The position numbers were made by a program, and so were the translations under genes. This document shows positions 5,920 to 36,773 of a stretch of DNA of 38,890 nt, one piece after another (the stretch's first letter is position 1; each line of letters begins with the position of its first letter). The stretch is from Promethearchaeota archaeon (GTDB taxonomy: Archaea; Asgardarchaeota; Lokiarchaeia; Sigyniarchaeales; SOKP01): the NCBI GenBank assembly GCA_016839705.1, contig JAEOTR010000045.1, forward strand, positions 1 to 38,890. Direction: 5' to 3'. The notes under the pieces were generated by a model, which was not told the DNA's origin, searched no databases, and saw only the letters and a list, made by a program, of their open reading frames with translations.

Positions 5920-5969
5920 TAATAGGCTCAGATTCAAAATTACAAACAAAAAAAAATGTGGAAATTTAG

Positions 5970-8822
5970 ATGATTCAAAATACTTACAACTACAAGAAAA
6001 GTGAAAAAAAATGGCAGAAGAAATGGGTCGAAGCACAACTTTTTGAGGCGGATAGAGATGAAAGGGAGAAATATTTCATCAATTTCCCTTTCCCTTATCT
6101 GAATGGACCCCCGCATTTAGGTCATGGTTATAGTTTATTAAAAGCCGATGTAATGGCTAGATTTCAAAGAATGATGGGGAAAAATGTATTGTTTCCATTC
6201 GCTTTTCATGCAACGGGTGAACCTATCGTAGGTGTTGCAAAAAGAATCAAAGCAGGTGATGAATCTCAAATAAGGATTTTAAAGATATCAGGGGTTCCTG
6301 AGAAAGAAATTCCTAAATTTAAAGATGCCGAATACATTGTTAACTATTTCAAAAATAAATGGATTGAGACAACGACAACATTAGGATTAGCTATCGACTG
6401 GCGAAGGCAATTTGTCACTACACAGTTGACTCCTACTTTTTCGAAATTTGTAGAATGGCAATATAGGAAATTGAAAAAAGATGGTTATGTAATTCAAGGG
6501 TCACATCCTGTAATTTGGTGTCCAGCAGATCAAAGTCCAACTGGAGACCACGATCGATTGGAAGGCGAAGGCGCTCGTATAGTGGATTATGTTGTTATTA
6601 AATTTTATTCTGAGGCACTTAATGCTTTTTTCTTGCCTGCCACATTGAGACCTGAAACAACATATGGGGTCACTAATATGTTTGTGCACCCTGAAGCATC
6701 ATATGTAAAAGTAGTTATTAATGGTGAAAATGTAATCATTTCTAAAGATGTTGTCATTAAGTTTCAAGATCAGAAATTTAAAGTTGGAGATATCGAGGAA
6801 GTAGCCACTAACGAGTTAATCGGGACCTATCTTACTAATCCAGTTAATAATGAGCAGATAATAGTTTTACCTGGTGATTTCATAGATACAGCCGGTTCAA
6901 CGGGAGTCGTTATGTCTGTACCCGCACATGCACCTATGGATTGGATTACTTTGAAAAATTTACAAGAGAATCCTGATAGTTTGAATAATTGGGGTATAAA
7001 CCTGGATGAAGTAATGTCAATTAAGCCAATTGCTTTGATCAAAGTGGAAGGATATGGTGAATTTCCCGCAGGTGAGGAAATTGAAAACCGTAATATCACT
7101 TCTCGTGATGATCCAGAAGTAAACGAAGCAACTAGAATAATTTACAGAAAAGAGCATAATTCTGGAATACTATTAGCGATAACTGGAAAATACAAAGATA
7201 TGACGGTTGAGTTTGTAAAAGACAAGATTATTGATGATTTTATTCATGATAATATTGCGTTTATCTTAAAAGAACCTGGAGAACCTGTTGTTTGTAGATG
7301 CGGTACTAGAAATCATGTGAAATATCTTGAAAACCAATGGTTCTTAAAATTTTCGGATACAGTTTGGAAAGACAAAACTCACAAACTTTTGGATAAAATG
7401 GATGTTTTCCCTATTGAAGCTCGAAAAGCGTTTCATAACACAGTTGATTGGTTAGAAAATAAAGCGTGTGCACGTAGATCAGGTTTGGGAACCCCTATGC
7501 CTTGGGATACTGATTGGATAATAGAAACATTGTCAGATTCGGTCATCTATATGGCATATTATATAATATCTAAATATGTCAATGATGGACGATTTACACT
7601 AGAATATTCAACGGATGAGGTTTTTGAATTTATATTATTAGGTAATGGTGATCCAAAAACTATTAGTGATGATGTTGGTATTGATCTTTCATTGTTAGAA
7701 GAAATTCGAGAAGAATTAGTATATTTCTATCCTTTTGATTTAAGAACATCAGGTAAGGATCTCCTAAATAATCATTTGACTTTTATGTTAATGCATCACA
7801 CAGCAATATTTCAAGAAGAATTTTGGCCTTTGGGTGTTGCTGTTAATGGCTATGTTGCAATTGAAAATATAAAAATGGGTAAAAGGTATGGAAACTTCAA
7901 AACAGTTGAAGATGTTGTCAATGTTTTTGGTGTAGATGCCGCAAGATTGGGATTCTTAATCGCTGGAGAGGGATTGAAAGATGCTTCTTTCTCATTAGCT
8001 GAAGCTGAAAGTTATGTCAAATGGATCCAAAATTTGTATGAAATGGCTTTAGAAAATATAGATGATGCGGAAGAAAAACAAATTGATCAATGGTTAGTTT
8101 CACGTATTCAAAATCATATTAGAACAACTATAAATTCTCTATCTAAAATGGAAACAAGATCTGCTTTTCAATCGGCATTTCACGCAACACTGCAAGATAT
8201 TCGTTGGTATTTGAAAAGACGAGGATCAAAAGGACCCGCTTATTCCTATGCGCTGGAAAATATTATATTGCTAGTGTGCCCTTTTATTCCCCACGTTGTT
8301 GAAGAAATCTGGGCTGTTAAAGGAAACCTTGGTTTTGCTTCAACCGCCCCATATCCTATTATCGATCAAACCAAAATTATCAAGGATTCAGAATATGCTG
8401 AGAAATTTCTTGATTCGTTTATTGATGATATAAAAAACTTGAAGAGTATCTTGTTAGAAAAGGAAAACAAAAAATTGGAAAAGATTGAAGTATTTATAGC
8501 CCCAAAATGGATGTACTTAATTTACTCTGAAGCATGTGAAAATGGGTTAAATGAGTTAATAAAGCGAATTATGCAGAATCCTGATATTAGAAAAGTTGGA
8601 CAGAGCGCCGTTAAATATGCCCAGAATTTGGTGAAAGATAGAGCTCCTCCTGATTTTCCATGGACTCAATCCTCTGCGATCAAAATATTGAATGAAGCAA
8701 AAGAATACATTGAGAAGCAAGTAAATACATCGATTGTAATCATCGAAGCTGAAAATTCCTCCCATATAAAAGCAAAAGCAGCAATACCTAGGAGACCAGG
8801 TATCAACTTTATTATGCAATAA
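5970..8822 (+). CDS. leuS: Leucine--tRNA ligase, archaeal/eukaryote-type
   Basis: FPFPYLNGPPHLGH (HIGH motif), HATG, IDWRRQF, ATLRPET, GSTGVVMSVPAHAP (editing domain), SGKDL..NHLTF, C-terminal AIPRRPGI. Confidence 0.95.
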   Translation: MIQNTYNYKKSEKKWQKKWVEAQLFEADRDEREKYFINFPFPYLNGPPHLGHGYSLLKADVMARFQRMMGKNVLFPFAFHATGEPIVGVAKRIKAGDESQIRILKISGVPEKEIPKFKDAEYIVNYFKNKWIETTTTLGLAIDWRRQFVTTQLTPTFSKFVEWQYRKLKKDGYVIQGSHPVIWCPADQSPTGDHDRLEGEGARIVDYVVIKFYSEALNAFFLPATLRPETTYGVTNMFVHPEASYVKVVINGENVIISKDVVIKFQDQKFKVGDIEEVATNELIGTYLTNPVNNEQIIVLPGDFIDTAGSTGVVMSVPAHAPMDWITLKNLQENPDSLNNWGINLDEVMSIKPIALIKVEGYGEFPAGEEIENRNITSRDDPEVNEATRIIYRKEHNSGILLAITGKYKDMTVEFVKDKIIDDFIHDNIAFILKEPGEPVVCRCGTRNHVKYLENQWFLKFSDTVWKDKTHKLLDKMDVFPIEARKAFHNTVDWLENKACARRSGLGTPMPWDTDWIIETLSDSVIYMAYYIISKYVNDGRFTLEYSTDEVFEFILLGNGDPKTISDDVGIDLSLLEEIREELVYFYPFDLRTSGKDLLNNHLTFMLMHHTAIFQEEFWPLGVAVNGYVAIENIKMGKRYGNFKTVEDVVNVFGVDAARLGFLIAGEGLKDASFSLAEAESYVKWIQNLYEMALENIDDAEEKQIDQWLVSRIQNHIRTTINSLSKMETRSAFQSAFHATLQDIRWYLKRRGSKGPAYSYALENIILLVCPFIPHVVEEIWAVKGNLGFASTAPYPIIDQTKIIKDSEYAEKFLDSFIDDIKNLKSILLEKENKKLEKIEVFIAPKWMYLIYSEACENGLNELIKRIMQNPDIRKVGQSAVKYAQNLVKDRAPPDFPWTQSSAIKILNEAKEYIEKQVNTSIVIIEAENSSHIKAKAAIPRRPGINFIMQ

Positions 8823-21565: not shown

Positions 21566-23473
21566 TTAGAAATTAGAGGATTCAATTTCTGCGATAAAAA
21601 GATTTCCAATTGAAAGCCATTTTTGCTTTGTTTCCAAATCATCAACTTCCTTTTCTGTAATCTCGATTCCTTGTTTAAGATTTTTCATTGCTAAATCGTA
21701 ATTATTAAGTTCCTTATAGCAAATTCCTAACTTAATATACGTTTGGTGAATATACCAATCCTCACTCGCTAATTCTAAGGTTTCTAAAAAATGATCAACT
21801 GCTTGTTCATAATCCTCAAAATACATTAAAATTTCTCCGTAGGTATCATGATATGTCCCATTTTCAGGAAATTTAGTAACAAGATCTTGCATTATATCTA
21901 GAGATTCATCTTTTTTATCTAAATATTGTAACCAATACGCTTTATAATTGAGAAGATCGGAATCTTCAGGATATTCTTTGATCAAATCATTAATTATCTC
22001 CAATCCCGCTTCAATTTTTTGCATTCTTCGAAGTATAGATGCTTTTTTGATTTGAATATCTTTAACATTTTCTGGAAAATTTGCATACATTTCATCAATA
22101 GTCACCAAGATTTCATTATAATCCTCATAATAAATCAAAATTTTAATTTTTGAATAATATAATTCAATATTTCCTGGATTGAGATTAATTTCTTCTGTAA
22201 TTTCTGTGACGTCCTGCTCATATTGCCCTCTTATTCCCTCAATACTCTTTGGTTGAAAAATATCCGCCAGGTCTTGCCAGATTATTCCTTCTAATTTATC
22301 AAACGTTTCTTTTAGTTCTACTTTCGCCTCGATCTTATAAGCTAAGTATTTGATGTAATCAGGTATAAAATCTCGTAGAGCATTTTTTAATTTTTTATCA
22401 AATAATATTTCACAGGCATCCTCAATAATATCGTCAACTTTATCCATAATGTTTATCGTTCGTGAAAACAGTTTATTTAAATAAGTAAACTTAGTAATAT
22501 GGTCTTCCGTAATTGCTTCAAGCATTACCTCTAATCTTTCATTTTCTTGAAAGTAAAAATGCATATCTGAAGGTAATATTAATTTAAAAAATTTAATTGG
22601 ATAAATATTGCTTTCAACAATTTCATCGACATAATACTCCAATTTTGTTTCCTTAATCGCATAAGTTTTTGAAAAATCTTCCATAGAAATATAATCGGGA
22701 TACCGATCAGGATGATTAGTAGATAGAAACAGCAAGATCTTATTAAAATCGTCCTCTTTTGTGAGCATGGATTCAACTCGGGAATAATCTAACTTTAGCA
22801 CATTGTTGAGGAATCTAAATTGTATGTCCTCATCTTTAATCTTATATTTATTGAAAAATTTAATGGTATTTTGAGTAACCTCTTCAATTCTCTTACTTTC
22901 TTCATCTAATATTGATTGACGATCCAAATTATAATCTCGTAGAATTATTGAATATTCTGCTTTACCGGATCGAGTGATTCTATATTCTTTTTCCTCTTTT
23001 TTTACAAATCCTTGATCTTGTAATAAATTTAGATTTTTTGATAATGAAGATTGGTTAATTTTAAGGGGCTCTGATAAAAAATCTGCCCACTTGCAATGAT
23101 TATTATTATATAGCATCCATAAAATCCAATGGTTGTAGTTTCTCTTTCTTCTGATGATCATTGGGGGATAACTTAGCTTTCTCTTTTTTTCATCTGAACT
23201 TGATAATTCTAAAAATCTCTTTCTACCCTCCGAAGTAATTTTATAGTGCCCTCTTGATATATTTTCGACTAGATGTTTACCCTTTAATAAGGATAAATAT
23301 TTTGAGAGAGTAGATAATCGAAGTTCGAGAGGCTCATCTGTAAAATTAGCCCACTCGCATTCTTCATTATTAGATAACATCCAGAGAATGATATGCTCAA
23401 AATTTTTCTTCTCCATTACCGGAGGATTATATATCTCATGGGGAGGATAATTGATTTTATTCATGGTTCTCAT
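21566..23473 (-). CDS. Tandem winged-helix + TPR protein (putative transcription regulator), paralog 1
   Basis: Two wHTH repeats (ILWMLxNNxxCxWxxF...STLSKYLSLL/SSLSKNLNLL...YxITxxG); C-terminal TPRs (NGTYHDTYGEILMYFEDYEQAVDHF; TYIKLGICYKELNNYDLAMKNL). Confidence 0.8.
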   Translation of the reverse strand: MRTMNKINYPPHEIYNPPVMEKKNFEHIILWMLSNNEECEWANFTDEPLELRLSTLSKYLSLLKGKHLVENISRGHYKITSEGRKRFLELSSSDEKKRKLSYPPMIIRRKRNYNHWILWMLYNNNHCKWADFLSEPLKINQSSLSKNLNLLQDQGFVKKEEKEYRITRSGKAEYSIILRDYNLDRQSILDEESKRIEEVTQNTIKFFNKYKIKDEDIQFRFLNNVLKLDYSRVESMLTKEDDFNKILLFLSTNHPDRYPDYISMEDFSKTYAIKETKLEYYVDEIVESNIYPIKFFKLILPSDMHFYFQENERLEVMLEAITEDHITKFTYLNKLFSRTINIMDKVDDIIEDACEILFDKKLKNALRDFIPDYIKYLAYKIEAKVELKETFDKLEGIIWQDLADIFQPKSIEGIRGQYEQDVTEITEEINLNPGNIELYYSKIKILIYYEDYNEILVTIDEMYANFPENVKDIQIKKASILRRMQKIEAGLEIINDLIKEYPEDSDLLNYKAYWLQYLDKKDESLDIMQDLVTKFPENGTYHDTYGEILMYFEDYEQAVDHFLETLELASEDWYIHQTYIKLGICYKELNNYDLAMKNLKQGIEITEKEVDDLETKQKWLSIGNLFIAEIESSNF

Positions 23474-23520
23474 GTATTTATAGTTTATTAACCTATTTAA
23501 AATTTTATAATTTTACATTA

Positions 23521-23562
23521 GTTCGAACTTCGCGGAAAGTCTGTATAAATAAACTATATATG
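23521..23562 (+). promoter_or_regulatory. Operator (ACTT-N6-AAGT) plus BRE/TATA of peptide gene A
   Basis: gttcgAACTTcgcggaAAGTc ... aaactatatatg; near-identical copy at 23885-23925 with the same spacing. Confidence 0.65.
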
Positions 23563-23615
23563 AAAATAAAATAATAATAAAATTAACAAAAAAAAAAAAT
23601 TAAACGGTAAAAAAA

Positions 23616-23693
23616 ATGAAGAGAAAAGAAGGAAAAGTAGTAAGTAAAGTCTCTGCCGGATATAATCCAGTTTTCCAAAGTTTTGTTCGTTAA
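23616..23693 (+). CDS. Small peptide A, 25 aa: MKRKEGKVVSKVSAGYNPVFQSFVR
   Basis: Unannotated ORF with its own promoter and a downstream T-run; paralogous to 23976..24056. Confidence 0.65.
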   Translation: MKRKEGKVVSKVSAGYNPVFQSFVR

Positions 23694-23760
23694 AATATTA
23701 TTTTTTTTTATTTTATATTTTTTTCACGATTATTTTTCATTTCCATATTATAGAAATTAA

Positions 23761-23789
23761 CCTCCTAGTAGACTGAAACTACTAGGGGG
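23761..23789. other. GC-rich hairpin between the two peptide genes
   Basis: cctcCTAGTAG-actgaaa-CTACTAGgggg; cctagtag/ctactagg is a perfect 8-bp stem, extendable with G-C/G-U pairs. Confidence 0.5.
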
Positions 23790-23884
23790 TTTAAAATTTC
23801 TTTTACAGGGTTTTTAGGATAAAATACTCCAATAACCACCTTAAAATGATGTTTTTTGTATTCAATCAAAAACTTTTTCTATAA

Positions 23885-23925
23885 TTCAAACTTCGCAAAA
23901 AGTTCATATAATAAAACTATATATG
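23885..23925 (+). promoter_or_regulatory. Operator (AACTT-N6-AAGTT) plus BRE/TATA of peptide gene B
   Basis: ttcaAACTTcgcaaaAAGTT ... aaactatatatg; 25-nt operator-to-TATA offset, the same as in copy 1. Confidence 0.65.
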
Positions 23926-23975
23926 GCATTGTATAAATATATTATTTAGAACACCCTTAAAGAGGTTAAAAAAAA

Positions 23976-24056
23976 ATGAAGAAAAATGCCAAGGAAGGAT
24001 TAATAAAAATAAATAACTATGGTCAAAATCCATTATTTCGGGATTTGCTTAAATAA
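23976..24056 (+). CDS. Small peptide B, 26 aa: MKKNAKEGLIKINNYGQNPLFRDLLK
   Basis: Unannotated ORF; SD-like gaggt upstream, T-run downstream; shares MK..KEG...GxNPxF with peptide A. Confidence 0.65.
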   Translation: MKKNAKEGLIKINNYGQNPLFRDLLK

Positions 24057-24197
24057 CTTTTTTTTAATTTTGTTTTATTCTTGATTTTGGATATTTTACT
24101 TATTTTGAAATCATTTTACCTAAAATTTTAAATTTCAAAAATTATAATCATTCATTAAGAAAAATTTTGATCATTTTGATAACTTTTTTATGTCTCG

Positions 24198-24743
24198 ATG
24201 AGTGATCCTCAGAAATATAGATTTAAGATAACCGTCATCGGTGATGGTCAAGTGGGTAAAACTTCCTTGATTAAGAAGTTTACTCAAGGTTCATTTGTTA
24301 AAGATTATGTGAAGACTTTGGGAGCTCAATTTTCAAAATTTGAGAAAATAATAGAAGGGGATGAAACTCGATTGATCTTCTGGGATATAGCAGGTCAAGA
24401 TGATTTTCGTTTTTTACTCCCTACATTTTATAGAGAAAGTAATGCGGCAATTATCGTTTATAGTCTTGAAGAAAATGAGCTAGGAACGCGAAGTTTTGAG
24501 CATGTACGAAATTGGTATGAAAATATTAAGAAGTTTTGCGGGGAGATTCCGATGATACTTTTTGGTAATAAAGTTGATTTAATTGAGGAAGATGAGCTCG
24601 AAAATTCTGAGGCCCATGATTTTGTAGAGAAAAACGGATTTCTCGGATATTATTTAACCTCAGCAAAAACGGGGAAACGAGTTCATGATGCGTTTAATAC
24701 AATAATTAACGAACTATACTACAAATCCAAGGCTTTATCATAA
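24198..24743 (+). CDS. Rab-like small GTPase
   Basis: GDGQVGKTS, YVKTLG, WDIAGQ, GNKVDL, TSAKTG; no C-terminal prenylation Cys. Confidence 0.93.
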   Translation: MSDPQKYRFKITVIGDGQVGKTSLIKKFTQGSFVKDYVKTLGAQFSKFEKIIEGDETRLIFWDIAGQDDFRFLLPTFYRESNAAIIVYSLEENELGTRSFEHVRNWYENIKKFCGEIPMILFGNKVDLIEEDELENSEAHDFVEKNGFLGYYLTSAKTGKRVHDAFNTIINELYYKSKALS

Positions 24744-24780: not shown

Positions 24781-27273
24781 TTAAAAATCAGCTTCCATTT
24801 CAGCAATTTCAGCTAGAAAGAGCTCTGCTATTGTGAGCCAATTTCGTTTTGTATCGAGATCACAAAAACATTTATTTGTGAATTCTTTCCCTTTTGAAAG
24901 GTTTTCAATAGCTGAATCTTGATCTCCCATTTCTTTATAACATATTCCTAGTTTAATATATGTTTGGTTAATATACCATTCATTACTCTCTAGTTCTATT
25001 GCCTTTTGGAACTCGTTAATAGCCTTTTCATATTCTTCAAAATTCATTAAAATTTCTCCATAAGTATCATGGAACATTCCATTATCTGGTTCCCGCTTGA
25101 GTAAGCCTTCTATGATCTCTAAGACATTCTCTTTTTTATCTAAATATTGTAACCAATAAATCTTGTTAAGTAAGAGATTATTATCCTCTGGATATTTTTC
25201 AATTAATTCATTAATGATTTCTAATCCTTCTTCAAGATTTTTCTTTTCTCTCAGAATATAGGCTTTTCTAATTTTTAGGCTTCTTTCACCTTCAGGAAAT
25301 TCTTTAAGTAAATGATCTAGAATATCTAATATTTCATCGAACTTATCAAAATAAAGCAATATTCGATTCTTTGAATTATAGAAATCAAGATTTTTGGGAT
25401 TTAATGTAATAGCATTGTCAATTGACTCAAGAGCTTCTTCATAGTTATTTGATTCCAATAAAAATTGACTTTTTAATTGATGATATCTTGCTTTATTTGA
25501 GTCATAGGCGTCTAATGCAATGGCATCTTCAATTTCAGTTAGTCGATCTTCTCTTTCGGAGTCAAACTCATACATCCGATTATAACCTTCTACTAATGCC
25601 ACTAGAGCGTGGGATAAAGGGTGATCAGGATAAAATTTCTGTCCTTTATCCACTATTTCAAATGCATTTTCATATTCTCCAAGTGCCATAGAAGAAAATC
25701 CCAAGACAAAATAATAAAGAGCATATAATGGATTATCTTTATCAACTTGGGTTGATTTTATGCGCTTATTCAGAAAATCTACAGATTCTTTATTGCGATT
25801 TAAATAAGCGAGAGTCATAGCTTTATAGATAATAATATCTAAGTCCTTCTTACCAGACTTAATAACCGAATTAAGAAGTTCCAATGTACTACCATATTTT
25901 TTTTCATCTAACGAGTGGATAATCTTCTTATACACTGAATCTGGTTTTGATGCCAGATACGGCCTTATTACCTCTAAAATACCTGTATCTAAATAATAAT
26001 TCATTTCATTTTCACCGATAAATTGATATTGCGAGGTCATTGAGAGACCCTCTTGTAATATTTCAGGGATATTCTGCCAAATTATACCTTCTAACTTACC
26101 AGAAATACCTAATAATTTCTTTTCTTTTTCAATTTTATATGCCAGATAATTAATATATCCTGGCAAGAATTTTAGTAATGAACTTTTCAAATCCTCATGG
26201 AAAACATATTGACAAGCTTCTTCCAAAATAGCATTTACAGTAGAATTCATGTCGAGGGGAAGTATTAGATTTGATGATTTTTCAAATAACTTATTCAAAT
26301 AGGTGAATTTTGTAATATGTTCTTCGGTAATAACTTGAAGCATCATTTCTAATTTCTCATCTGACTGAAAATAATAAATTCTGTCAGGAGGAATTTCTAA
26401 TTTGAAAAATTTTGTTGTAAAGATTTGATTTTCGACGATTTCATCAATATAATAATCAAGCGTAGTTTTTTTAATATCATACTTTGACGAAAATTCCTCA
26501 GGAAAGATATATTTCGGATACTCACTGGGATGATTAATAGAAAGAAAGAGTAAAATTTTATGAAAATCTTCTTCATTTCGTAATACATTTTTAATTTTGG
26601 AGTATTCTAGTTTTAAAACACTGTTAAGAAATCTAAACTGAGTATCTCTATCTCTTATGTCAAAATCTCTAAAAAATTTGAGCGTTTTTTGCGTTAACTC
26701 TGTAATTCGTTTGCTTTCTTCTTCTAAAATTGATTGCCTGTCTAGATCATATTGTGTTAACATTTTAGAATATTCCGATTTACCCATTTGAGTAATCTTA
26801 TATTCCTTTTCCTCTTTTCTTACAAAATTTTTACTAATTAAATCATTCAGATTTTTCGATAACGATGATTGATTTATTGACAAAGGCTCATCAAGAAAGT
26901 CTGCCCATTTGCAATAGTTATTATTATACACCATCCAAAGAATCCAGTGATCATAGTTTCGGCGGGTAAGTATTACTTTTGGAGGATAACTTAATTTCCT
27001 TCCCCCTCTTTTAGCTTGGCCCAATTCATAATATTTTTCACGTCCCTTAGATGTTATTTGGTACTGATTGAATTCACTTTTTATAATATATCCATCACGT
27101 TTAAGTCTGGATACATATATTGAAAGGGTGGATTTATTAATTTTTTCCTTTAATTCTGACCAAGAACAAACTTTATTATTGCTTAACATCCAAAGGATAA
27201 TATACTCCCAATTGGGTTTACCAATAATTGGGTTTAAAATTTCCTCAGGGGGGAAATTGCACGTGGTATCCAA
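24781..27273 (-). CDS. Tandem winged-helix + TPR protein (putative transcription regulator), paralog 2
   Basis: Same architecture as 21566..23473 (shared LSYPP..I...NY.HWILWM.YNNN.CKWADFL.EPL.INQSSLSKNL; YDLDRQSILEEESKRI; TYIKLGICYKE) with about 195 extra residues of TPR-like repeats. Confidence 0.8.
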   Translation of the reverse strand: MDTTCNFPPEEILNPIIGKPNWEYIILWMLSNNKVCSWSELKEKINKSTLSIYVSRLKRDGYIIKSEFNQYQITSKGREKYYELGQAKRGGRKLSYPPKVILTRRNYDHWILWMVYNNNYCKWADFLDEPLSINQSSLSKNLNDLISKNFVRKEEKEYKITQMGKSEYSKMLTQYDLDRQSILEEESKRITELTQKTLKFFRDFDIRDRDTQFRFLNSVLKLEYSKIKNVLRNEEDFHKILLFLSINHPSEYPKYIFPEEFSSKYDIKKTTLDYYIDEIVENQIFTTKFFKLEIPPDRIYYFQSDEKLEMMLQVITEEHITKFTYLNKLFEKSSNLILPLDMNSTVNAILEEACQYVFHEDLKSSLLKFLPGYINYLAYKIEKEKKLLGISGKLEGIIWQNIPEILQEGLSMTSQYQFIGENEMNYYLDTGILEVIRPYLASKPDSVYKKIIHSLDEKKYGSTLELLNSVIKSGKKDLDIIIYKAMTLAYLNRNKESVDFLNKRIKSTQVDKDNPLYALYYFVLGFSSMALGEYENAFEIVDKGQKFYPDHPLSHALVALVEGYNRMYEFDSEREDRLTEIEDAIALDAYDSNKARYHQLKSQFLLESNNYEEALESIDNAITLNPKNLDFYNSKNRILLYFDKFDEILDILDHLLKEFPEGERSLKIRKAYILREKKNLEEGLEIINELIEKYPEDNNLLLNKIYWLQYLDKKENVLEIIEGLLKREPDNGMFHDTYGEILMNFEEYEKAINEFQKAIELESNEWYINQTYIKLGICYKEMGDQDSAIENLSKGKEFTNKCFCDLDTKRNWLTIAELFLAEIAEMEADF

Positions 27274-27428: not shown

Positions 27429-27472
27429 TAGTCTAAGAGTCCATTCAGAGTTCCTAAAATTAAACTATATAT
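27429..27472 (+). promoter_or_regulatory. Putative operator (TCTAAGAnTCCA) plus BRE/TATA for the 27514 small gene
   Basis: tctaagagtcca starts 30 nt before aaactat; same arrangement at 27934-27970. Confidence 0.5.
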
Positions 27473-27513
27473 TAAACCATTCCGTTATATTATTTAATAA
27501 AAAAAAAATAAAA

Positions 27514-27708
27514 ATGTTGAAAAAAATGACCCTAATATATGAAGAAGTAATGGTTGAAAAAGTCGAAAAGATTGAAGAACCTGAAAATCTTGGGGATTTG
27601 AATCCACAATATTTTGAGGAAGCCTCTTATCTTAAAGAAGCTCAAGAGAGAATTCAGGCTTCAGATATATATGCTGGCTCCAAATTCAATTTTTTTAGTG
27701 CTTTTTAA
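27514..27708 (+). CDS. Small acidic hypothetical protein ending ...GSKFNFFSAF
   Basis: ORF divergent from wHTH-TPR paralog 2 with its own TATA; protein-like composition. Confidence 0.65.
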   Translation: MLKKMTLIYEEVMVEKVEKIEEPENLGDLNPQYFEEASYLKEAQERIQASDIYAGSKFNFFSAF

Positions 27709-28009: not shown

Positions 28010-28270
28010 GTGAGTGTGATAAAAAATATGAATCAATTATTAGTTAAAGAGGATGCCTCTTTCGAACTTGAGGATCTACATTTGATTTTAATAAAAAGTA
28101 TCAAAAAAGATAGTGAAAAGACTAAAACCAATGCTAGAATGCTGTATGAGATATACAGTAGTTTGATGAATCCTAAGTACTCTGAGAATAAGATTACACC
28201 TGAAGACGCACAAATCAAGTTAGATGCAATGATGCCAAGAAATAATCAGGGCCTCATCAGAACTTTTTAA
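28010..28270 (+). CDS. Small hypothetical protein ending ...NNQGLIRTF
   Basis: First of three co-oriented small ORFs. Confidence 0.65.
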   Translation: MSVIKNMNQLLVKEDASFELEDLHLILIKSIKKDSEKTKTNARMLYEIYSSLMNPKYSENKITPEDAQIKLDAMMPRNNQGLIRTF

Positions 28271-28281
28271 GAACTTCAAGT

Positions 28282-28554
28282 ATGCTATGGAGGATAATAA
28301 AATACCAAAAGAGGTGGTTTAATCTGACAGAAAGTATTCGAATAATAACTCCCGATTTAAGGGGAGTGATTTATGTACCACGAGAAGAATTGATTGAGTT
28401 TGAGCCAAAAAAAATATTTAAAGAGGCTCTATCTGACAGGAATGAACTAGACTTAATAGAACGTAAAAGAGACCTGAAAAGATGGAAACAATCTTTGGGT
28501 TATTATAGTTTGCATCCTGATAAATTCAGGTTTGGTTTAAGAGATTTAAAATAA
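28282..28554 (+). CDS. Small hypothetical protein (possible CTG start at 28324 after GAGGTG)
   Basis: Co-oriented small ORF; SD-like gaggtg at 28311-16 sits 7 nt before an in-frame CTG. Confidence 0.6.
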   Translation: MLWRIIKYQKRWFNLTESIRIITPDLRGVIYVPREELIEFEPKKIFKEALSDRNELDLIERKRDLKRWKQSLGYYSLHPDKFRFGLRDLK

Positions 28555-28571
28555 AATGTATAAAAAATGGG

Positions 28572-28838
28572 GTGATAACAAAAATGGTAGAAGTATTATT
28601 AAAGAAAAATGCTCTTAAAGCACCAATCGAATTTGAGGATTTAATAATTTTTGAAGAGCTCCCCACGGTTGAAGAAGATTATGAGATAGTTAAGGTCAAA
28701 TTAGAAGAGAAACCACTCAAAAAAGCATTATCAAAATTATTGAAGAGGGCTAAATATAATGCTAAATATTTGGAGGAGATGGTTGATGTGAATAAAGTCA
28801 AAAGAGATATACATTACAGGAGGTATGGACTTTTCTAA
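28572..28838 (+). CDS. Small hypothetical protein ending ...HYRRYGLF (probable ATG at 28584)
   Basis: SD-like ggggtga before the ATG; charged helical composition. Confidence 0.65.
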   Translation: MITKMVEVLLKKNALKAPIEFEDLIIFEELPTVEEDYEIVKVKLEEKPLKKALSKLLKRAKYNAKYLEEMVDVNKVKRDIHYRRYGLF

Positions 28839-35294: not shown

Positions 35295-35873
35295 TTAATC
35301 ATCGATAATGATTATCTCCTCATCATCCTTTTCTTCTTCTAACTCTTCAAGATCATAACGTTCTTTAAGAGTGTCTATTGGATTCTTCTTAAAAAATTCA
35401 GCGGATTTAAGACAGATATCATATTTTAGAGGATCATCCGGATTAGGATTTTCTACTAATTTCCGTAAGGCTTTAATCGTAGATTTTAAATCTGAAAGTC
35501 TTGACCATTGTTTAAGAATATTTAAACAGATATATCCCGTTCCTCTATCTTCTCTAGTTGTCAATTCAACAGGATGAATATTTGGGTGGAAAATATTTGA
35601 ATTCCAAGTAAAATCTATACCCCCTGGGTAGGGAAAAGATCTTTTTATCTTCAAAAATATCCTGTGTGTTTCTATAGGTGTTAAATCAATAGGTTCTTCA
35701 TCTGTTTTTAAAGTAAATCCAATTGCTTTTAGGTACAAAGTCATTACTACATTATCCTCATGCCATTCTATTGAATCTTCTTCTATTACATTTAGATTCT
35801 TTAAATTTCTAAGTTCATTACTTATCCTATCTTTCCATATTTCAATTGGTAATTCAGGCATAATTAATAACAC
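35295..35873 (-). CDS. Ubiquitin-conjugating enzyme E2 (probable ATG at 35861)
   Basis: FPY, IFHPNIHP...GYICLNILKQWS (catalytic Cys), LVENPNPDDPL; acidic tail. Confidence 0.92.
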   Translation of the reverse strand: MLLIMPELPIEIWKDRISNELRNLKNLNVIEEDSIEWHEDNVVMTLYLKAIGFTLKTDEEPIDLTPIETHRIFLKIKRSFPYPGGIDFTWNSNIFHPNIHPVELTTREDRGTGYICLNILKQWSRLSDLKSTIKALRKLVENPNPDDPLKYDICLKSAEFFKKNPIDTLKERYDLEELEEEKDDEEIIIIDD

Positions 35874-35888
35874 TCCTTTAGTTATATT

Positions 35889-36773
35889 TTATTCATTTTC
35901 TTTTATAAACGAACATGTCCAACAATTTGGATCTTTAATTTTGTTAATTATATTAAATTTATTTGTGAGACCATTATAATTTAATTGCTTACCAACGAGT
36001 GGTTCTCCTATTTTGGGATTCCATTTTTTATATTTATCAAAATAATCTGTACCCAGTATGAATTTAAGCACTTGTTGCGTTTGGATTCCTCCAATAATCG
36101 ATGTTGTGGTTATGAGAGTAGCCATTTTTTCCATGGTTTCTCCATTTTGCGAATCTATTTCTTGTCCAGTGCAAGAAAATTTTCTCCACATTAAATCTAA
36201 ATCAACATTAGAAATTCCACATTGTAAACATGAAGAAGTTTGCATTTTTGAATATACTGCTTGTACCGTTCCAAAGTATCCGTCAATTCCAGAATCTATA
36301 AACGGAATGTTATAATAATATGCATAGTTATTTGCTTCAAGTCGAGCTTCAATATTATCTAAACAAGAACATACAACATCATATTGTTTATACAGATCTT
36401 TATCTATATTGTTTAAATCTTCCTTTATCGTGATGATTTCTACATCTGGATTCAATATTCTACAAGCCTCTTTAACCACATCAACTTTATATTTTTTCTT
36501 TTTAGCAGCTTTTGCATTAAATAATATACAACGATTTAAATTGGAGGTTTCAATTAGATCATAATCAATTAAGAGAATTGTCCCTACCCCTGCCATGACA
36601 AGATTTTTCACAAGTTCATTTCCTGTTGCTCCGACACCTATTACCATGATTCGGGCATTCGTAATTTTCTTTTGATCCCAGCCTCTAATTCTTTTTTGGC
36701 GATCATATTTATCCGATTCTATGGAATCAAACCCAATTATTTCAATTTCAGACGGATCTTTTTTTTCTGCCAT
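35889..36773 (-). CDS. Ubiquitin-activating E1-like (ThiF/UBA family) adenylyltransferase
   Basis: YDRQ, GVGATG, DYDLIETSNLNR, CLDNIEAR, CLQC and CWTC zinc pairs, candidate catalytic Cys in FSCTG. Confidence 0.92.
   Translation of the reverse strand: MAEKKDPSEIEIIGFDSIESDKYDRQKRIRGWDQKKITNARIMVIGVGATGNELVKNLVMAGVGTILLIDYDLIETSNLNRCILFNAKAAKKKKYKVDVVKEACRILNPDVEIITIKEDLNNIDKDLYKQYDVVCSCLDNIEARLEANNYAYYYNIPFIDSGIDGYFGTVQAVYSKMQTSSCLQCGISNVDLDLMWRKFSCTGQEIDSQNGETMEKMATLITTTSIIGGIQTQQVLKFILGTDYFDKYKKWNPKIGEPLVGKQLNYNGLTNKFNIINKIKDPNCWTCSFIKENE

Follow-up and report, generated by a model that had tools for sequence, protein, structure and literature searches.

The window, a 38,890-nucleotide stretch of DNA, is contig C30 in a Promethearchaeota archaeon genome of 3.36 Mb and 93% completeness. 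Between a divergent regulator gene and the gene of a small GTPase it holds two micropeptide ORFs, each headed by a promoter cassette, and the features of the locus are as follows:

21566..23473, minus strand: regulator A, 635 aa, with two winged-helix domains, a third wHTH-like unit and a C-terminal TPR array (Pfam)
23494..23501, minus strand: TATA-like TTTAAATA of the regulator A gene, on the opposite side of the common operator
23522..23560, plus strand: promoter cassette 1, with palindromic operator (23522-23541), 9-nt spacer and BRE/TATA-like AAACTATATA; start site predicted at ~23585
23616..23693, plus strand: micropeptide 1, 25 aa, subtype A, with G-Y-N-P and, behind it, an amphipathic tail that ends in R; net charge +5
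23701..23709, plus strand: T-run after peptide 1, a putative archaeal-type terminator
23759..23791, no strand assigned: GC-rich hairpin between the two peptide units (z −3.2)
23885..23923, plus strand: promoter cassette 2, of the same design as cassette 1; start site predicted at ~23948
23962..23966, plus strand: Shine-Dalgarno-like GAGGT before peptide 2
23976..24056, plus strand: micropeptide 2, 26 aa, subtype B, with an IKI strand, G-x-N/H-P or a variant of it, and an amphipathic tail that ends in K; net charge +4
24058..24065, plus strand: T-run after peptide 2
24198..24743, plus strand: Ras/Rab-like small GTPase downstream of the peptides (Pfam Ras, 1e-42)
24781..27273, minus strand: regulator B, an 830-aa paralog with a longer TPR array and a different operator
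27430..27708, plus strand: operator-B cassette and 60-aa acidic microprotein (ORF 27526-27708) with an L-N-P-x-Y/F motif
28282..28554, plus strand: 90-aa protein whose C-terminus matches subtype C peptides (E 1e-5)

The original prediction described two short, unannotated plus-strand ORFs with a common upstream block and a T-tract behind each, and all of these elements were recovered: the ORFs lie at 23616-23693 and 23976-24056 with the translations as quoted, their starts are exactly 360 bp apart, the upstream block is a 52-nt repeat (D3; 77% identity, copies 363 bp apart) and the T-runs occupy the two positions listed. The 360-bp spacing itself was dropped as meaningful, tandem promoters elsewhere being 312-496 bp apart. 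Neither peptide was found in a collection of 15 billion proteins, which does contain two 30-aa relatives as well as the products of the 84- and 90-aa genes of the window, a pattern that would fit a gene-caller cut-off at about 30 aa. Judged by its sequence elements, each ORF is a self-contained unit of operator, TATA box, ribosome site, ORF and T-run; the ribosome site of peptide 1 is just a weak CGGT (23605-23608), its orthologs carrying AAGGT or GAGGT, and T-rich tails lie downstream of nearly all members of the peptide family. The intervening hairpin has one further copy in the same genome (contig C37, ~7121), likewise downstream of a peptide cassette; it also occurs at locus L019, with weak DNA matches in neighbouring-family genomes that lack the regulator.

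The block shared by the two units consists of the palindrome GAACTT-N6-AAGTT, the spacer and AAACTATATA, which we read as a BRE/TATA element, and the spacer measures 9 nt in all exact-pattern matches and in the 48 training sites. At three loci (L017, L049 and L053) the leaderless ATG of a longer gene lies 24 nt past the TATA block, which therefore suggests the position of the start site; the peptide genes have an A-rich leader of 25-45 nt, mostly with GAGGT or AAGGT. On the regulator side, most homologous loci retain the TATA-like box at a variable distance of 12-22 nt from the operator. A promoter matrix trained on other genomes gave six sites in the genome studied here and none in the reversed genome that served as control; besides the two in the window, these were a site on C37 heading a third subtype A peptide, behind which a subtype C peptide comes next, a site on C93 heading a 67-aa gene, and two weak sites opposite other regulator paralogs. 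GxNPxF occurs in 3 of the 12,858 ATG ORFs of 20-32 aa in this genome, two of the three being the neighbouring pair in the window, and this rarity, together with the matrix result, argues that the pair did not arise by chance. Orthologs of peptide 1 were found in five other genomes, as a third copy in its own genome and at eight metagenome loci, and peptide 2 has near-identical relatives at loci L006 and L243. The operator pattern had no match in the viral contigs searched, and matches from a sigma-70 scan were discarded as the wrong promoter type.

When metagenomes were scanned with the promoter, blind to any ORF, 28 of 37 evaluable sites led into a short ORF, 7 into a longer one and 2 into none, against a background of 10%. 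In related genomes 48 of 64 promoters headed an ORF of ≤35 aa, nearly all of 22-32 aa, random A-preceded ATGs giving 10%; this set is partly biased, as the DNA search that supplied some of its loci had used the ORFs too, whereas the promoter-only scan of the metagenomes is unbiased. Locus counts are accurate to one or two, the ORF having been picked wrongly at L090, L231, L095, L109 and L131. At four loci (L091, L106, L161 and L147) the operator and TATA box were followed by purine-rich DNA with no or a doubtful ORF, and these may represent small non-coding RNAs.

Selection on the peptide, which had been claimed from the persistence of the amino-acid pattern, was borne out by substitution ratios. 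In frame, pN/pS was 0.47, 0.44 and 0.59 for subtypes A, C and E (other frames, 0.8-1.9), with a weak value of 0.74 for the four sequences of subtype D. A separate computation for the two subtypes in the window yielded 0.38 (A) and 0.43 (B); after removal of the motif codons, because these had been used for grouping the subtypes, the ratios were 0.43 and 0.38 with codon-bootstrap intervals of 0.21-0.72, below 1, and all such values are estimates from few and related sequences. Loci that keep the promoter and lack the frame, as expected of non-coding RNAs or decayed duplicates, formed a minority (4 of 64 and 2 of 37). In all likelihood, therefore, both ORFs are real regulon genes under selection. 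That they are leader peptides (uORFs) tuning the downstream GTPase, or incidental ORFs in non-coding RNAs or decayed duplicates, appears most improbable: in 11 of 26 loci the next gene on that strand is indeed the GTPase gene, a few promoters lack an ORF and a stable hairpin separates the two units, but purifying selection is confined to the frame, the T-runs come right after the stop codon, the downstream gene is often unrelated or on the opposite strand, and an Rfam scan returned chance-level matches only, none near the gathering score.

We collected 58 distinct peptides of 22-32 aa, with further ones from the metagenome scan, and these fall into seven or more subtypes. Subtypes A, B, D and G align with one another, sharing a basic start, a hydrophobic strand, often a Gly, and an amphipathic tail ending in K or R; among these four, N-P or H-P is common only in A and B, and subtypes D to H mostly do without N-P. 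Subtype C is distinct and tightly conserved, and its sequence is also found as the C-terminal part of proteins of 74-94 aa, such as that encoded at 28282-28554. The median net charge is +4, and the helical moment of the C-terminal part exceeds that of shuffled sequences (p 0.04-0.05). Of the motifs proposed to unite the pair, GxNPxF is present in both window peptides, but in most of their orthologs I or L replaces the F, and orthologs of peptide 1 lack KEG; both were consequently rejected as family signatures and kept as features of subtypes. The description of the two as paralogs fares better, since the alignment of the subtypes makes it plausible that they are old paralogs, although the motif is not family-wide. 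Profile searches with both peptide groups, the homology check proposed at the outset, gave credible matches only in the same family of genomes. A Pfam scan of 36 peptides returned nothing credible (one Paratox match, E 0.04, was dismissed), nor did Pfam and NCBIfam for the peptides and the 60-93-aa proteins, and an ESM Atlas search gave no usable match. The two ORFs very probably belong to a large family of micropeptide genes, with products of 23-30 residues, in one family of Loki-type Asgard archaea.

The peptide 1 and regulator A genes are divergent and 142 bp apart, and the distribution of the regulator is similarly narrow. Its relatives come from Promethearchaeota (Loki-type Asgard) assemblies: at E 1e-20 it was detected in 56 of the 68 genomes of this family, with one to seven or more copies each, and in none of the 232 others searched; for the neighbouring family f2 the count was 0 of 7. 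Members measure ~610-1000 aa, with Pfam TPR families in 58 of 58, and the AlphaFold model of a 68%-identical ortholog (pLDDT 84) predicts helical repeats at residues 400-622. In a tree of 109 regulator copies, clade A comprises 30 rows (SH-aLRT 99). The full operator adjoins 27 of the 28 clade-A regulators with upstream DNA, the remaining copy being degenerate (two rows lack upstream DNA), and in the proximal slot it is found in clade A only. In the other clades the same TATA block is preceded by repeats that resemble the operator without matching it, and the targets are 73-86-aa proteins with further peptides, the GTPase or secreted proteins. The first recognition helix differs by clade and the second is constant. 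A large clade (L150, L138, L097, L142, L154, L132 and others) faces ~200-400-aa secreted proteins with clear signal peptides and has a different operator variant; the idea that the micropeptides are truncated signal peptides of these proteins was discarded, as they have no hydrophobic core. A fifth regulator paralog in the genome studied (C13:39291-40508) is short (~440 aa), has no match to the TPR array and sits on a long branch.

At the DNA level the proposed link to the TPR regulator is thus supported, since presence of the operator tracks a single regulator clade. This co-variation makes the case that regulator A binds the palindrome, and the peptides are most likely outputs that this regulator activates. 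In the archaeal TrmB/Ptr2 regulators, TrmBL1/Tgr and TFB-RF1, a site upstream of BRE/TATA indicates activation (PMC4158304), and since the palindrome lies at a fixed 9 nt upstream of this element, comparison with these systems argues strongly that regulator A binds it through its winged-helix domains and activates these promoters in cis and the dispersed copies in trans. As in TrmBL1/Tgr, Ptr2 and TFB-RF1, winged-helix DNA-binding domains are combined with an operator just upstream of BRE/TATA and a dispersed regulon; unlike in those proteins, which have a sugar- or amino-acid-binding domain, the tandem wHTH is joined to a TPR array, and the targets are mainly microproteins.

The peptides had further been proposed as ligands or effectors of the regulator. 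The operator-regulator link fits the effector part, and the targets of the operator bear on the ligand part. Clade-A operators head a peptide in 19 of 27 cases and a 242-247-aa histidine kinase, a 73- or 199-aa protein or no ORF in the other 8; in one sub-clade (L095, L102, L109, L131, L212 and L217) the operator heads a 242-251-aa HisKA/HATPase histidine kinase with no peptide. The same operator also heads leaderless 79-93-aa proteins (L017, L049, L053, L206, L208 and L225) and related 71-aa proteins (L040 and L052), with a ubiquitin-like gene near some of these loci (L053:3441-3770). Sister regulators face different subtypes (C versus B, H versus D, E versus D), two or three subtypes can share a locus, and several occur within one genome. 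In the ORF-blind set, 10 of 22 cassettes are not faced by a regulator, and stand-alone copies lie among unrelated genes on either strand. A strict one-to-one pairing of cognate ligand and receptor is hence doubtful, because subtypes are shuffled among near-identical regulators, some operators head no ORF or a kinase, and roughly half of the cassettes are isolated, all of which disfavours a private code. Across clades, also those that face secreted proteins, many TPR residues do not vary; together with the shuffling this points to outputs with possible feedback on a common site.

The locus resembles known peptide-receptor systems in its layout. RRNPP pairs are recognized by a propeptide of 10-100 aa, a Sec or SHP-like export region, a receptor of 250-500 aa, TPRs and gene adjacency (PMC10075063), and RRNPPA is known from Bacillota and their mobile elements (PMC12700828). 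The sizes of the peptides (25 and 26 aa), the TPRs of the receptor and the adjacency of the genes (142 bp) agree with this description, and the 635 aa of the regulator lie outside the receptor range. No signal h-region was found in the 58 peptides: the maximum 9-residue hydropathy is 0.8 and −0.02 for the window peptides and above 2.0 for none of the 58, signal peptides from the same genomes reaching about 3.3 (mostly 2.8-3.5). No RRNPP-specific family was among the 25 commonest Pfam families in the regulators, and the best 50 Foldseek matches listed included no RRNPPA structure. Like Rgg/SHP and RRNPP(A), the module sets a small peptide gene beside, here divergent from, a DNA-binding TPR regulator, its peptides have a basic N-terminus and a genome carries several paralogous pairs. 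It departs from them in its archaeal host and promoters, in peptides without a Sec or SHP-like hydrophobic region, in regulators of 635-1000 aa with two or three winged-helix domains instead of 250-500 aa and one HTH, in a peptide subtype independent of regulator phylogeny, in the many cassettes that stand alone and in the Ras-like GTPase often found in the locus. On these sequence features the layout is like that of Rgg/SHP, but the module is not an RRNPP member, because no peptide carries an export signal.

A quorum circuit of the Rgg/SHP kind would need Sec-independent export, a cut near the conserved Gly, re-import and binding to the TPRs, with the subtypes as strain codes. The divergent gene pair at 142 bp with its common operator would suit such a circuit, as would the basic N-terminus, the Gly about ten residues from the end with a variable tail behind it and, more generically, four oligopeptide-binding proteins in the genome. 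In the structural comparison based on the predicted model, PlcR and Rap can be superposed on the TPR part at Z 16.5-16.6 (rmsd ~5, 200-207 residues), but they score no better than generic TPR proteins, which are tied with them, and OGT and BBS4 reach 18.7. Given also that none of the 58 peptides has a hydrophobic region, that a C39 exporter was not found in the 93%-complete genome, and that sister regulators face different subtypes with several subtypes in one genome, we regard this explanation as quite unlikely. Our literature search, of incomplete coverage, found no description of the module or of an archaeal RRNPP case.

The original prediction offered precursors of processed peptides as an alternative, for which we see no support: the peptides show no signal h-region, and around 47 cassettes the only conserved neighbours were the regulator, a TPR protein and the GTPase, with no conserved peptidase, exporter or modifying enzyme. 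A variant in which a basic leader and a variable core are post-translationally modified by an unlinked maturation enzyme could draw on the leader-like first half of the peptides, on a variable second half with aromatics, Asn and sometimes Cys, and on the B12 radical SAM genes of the window together with the genome's four SPASM domains, which are generic. It seems very improbable, with no modifying enzyme, protease or transporter among those conserved neighbours, no PqqD/RRE domain found in the 93%-complete genome, and the window's radical SAM proteins far under the RiPP family cut-offs.

The GTPase occupies the same position in 11 of 26 clade-A loci and in 8 of 25 metagenome cassettes, which makes it a second candidate target. 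Among 52 matches in its own genome it belongs to a distinct group of nine copies with 44-63% identity to it; copies of this group lie in the window (24198, 29104 and 29771) and on C13, C53, C97 and C82. An N-P or H-P with an aromatic or hydrophobic residue near the C-terminus recurs in subtypes A and B, in subtype C and in the operator-B microproteins, and its presence in three separately regulated families hints at a common binding site. Together with the invariant TPR residues, which suggest a common groove, this motif was counted in favour of feedback, although the groove may bind other things, since clades facing secreted proteins keep the same residues. A complex prediction for the ortholog regulator of L039 with its 30-aa subtype C peptide, both entered as alignments, scored 0.01 and counts neither way.

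The reading we favour, with a probability of about 40% for the chain as a whole, is that the peptides are intracellular feedback peptides of the wHTH/TPR module. Regulator A, bound at the palindrome upstream of BRE/TATA, would switch on the peptide genes in cis and in trans; the peptides might then stay in the cytoplasm, where their C-terminal turn and amphipathic helix could bind one conserved partner of the module, the likeliest candidate being the conserved TPR groove of the regulator family and otherwise the co-located Ras-like GTPase. The result would be feedback on the circuit and not a cell-to-cell signal with a private code. Adjacency of the GTPase in under half of the loci counts against feedback, as do the near-absence of N-P from subtypes D to H, the 8 clade-A operators with other targets or none, and the weak ratio of subtype D.

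Possible, if on balance unlikely, is that the peptides are pure regulon outputs acting outside the module, produced in quantity from several gene copies once the regulator is active, for example as basic amphipathic peptides that bind membranes, ribosomes, nucleic acid or an unlinked enzyme. Bacillus SASPs and staphylococcal PSMs are dispersed multi-copy small-protein regulons, and PSMs are amphipathic peptides of 20-25 aa without a signal sequence. The parallel lies in several short monocistronic paralogs switched on by one regulator; sequence matches are lacking and the peptides here are far less hydrophobic than PSMs. Outside targets would suit the cassettes without an opposite regulator and the stand-alone copies among unrelated neighbours, a regulon that also includes 62-93-aa proteins and a kinase, the seven dispersed paralogs that regulator B likewise appears to drive, and the net charge and helical moment of the peptides. 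They sit less well with the fact that in two genera about half of the loci keep a peptide gene opposite the regulator, often with the GTPase, and with the exact-residue conservation of subtype C, which suggests a specific protein site and not bulk binding.

Feedback on the module has a bolder version, improbable in our judgement, in which Asgard archaea possess a peptide-gated circuit independent of bacterial RRNPP, with double-wHTH/TPR factors switched by their own micropeptides and a dedicated clade of Ras-like GTPases wired in; that the subtypes then give cross-talk between paralogs or between cells is likewise speculative. If the peptides do gate the regulator, this would be an archaeal peptide-TPR circuit, of which our literature search, incomplete as its coverage was, found no published case. 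Gene regulation and signalling in Asgard archaea are, to our knowledge, poorly understood, and their many small GTPases mostly lack an assigned partner. The locus supplies a defined regulator, a predicted operator, peptides of synthetic size and a GTPase, so that in vitro work is feasible without culture, and it points to a class of conserved genes hidden below the 30-residue annotation limit.

The neighbouring regulator B offers a second instance of such a regulon. A scan for its operator gave seven matches in the genome and none in the reversed control, each heading a dispersed 59-74-aa acidic paralog; besides that in the window, these lie on C85, C17 (two), C21, C52 and C20, with an L-N-P-R-Y/F motif and mostly a Y-G-F end, and an eighth, longer homolog on C32 is without the operator. 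Farther along the window, 28028-28838 holds three small genes (80, 90 and 84 aa) with no Pfam or NCBIfam match, the 84-aa type recurring opposite clade-B regulators (C37:8301-8555 in the same genome; L022, L023 and L203). On C37 a thiamine-pyrophosphate enzyme-like gene (5929-6947) appears to be broken into two ORFs with its middle missing, through an assembly error or a deletion, and on the minus strand of the window, at 35295-36773, a ubiquitin-conjugating (E2) gene and a ThiF/E1-like gene lie side by side.
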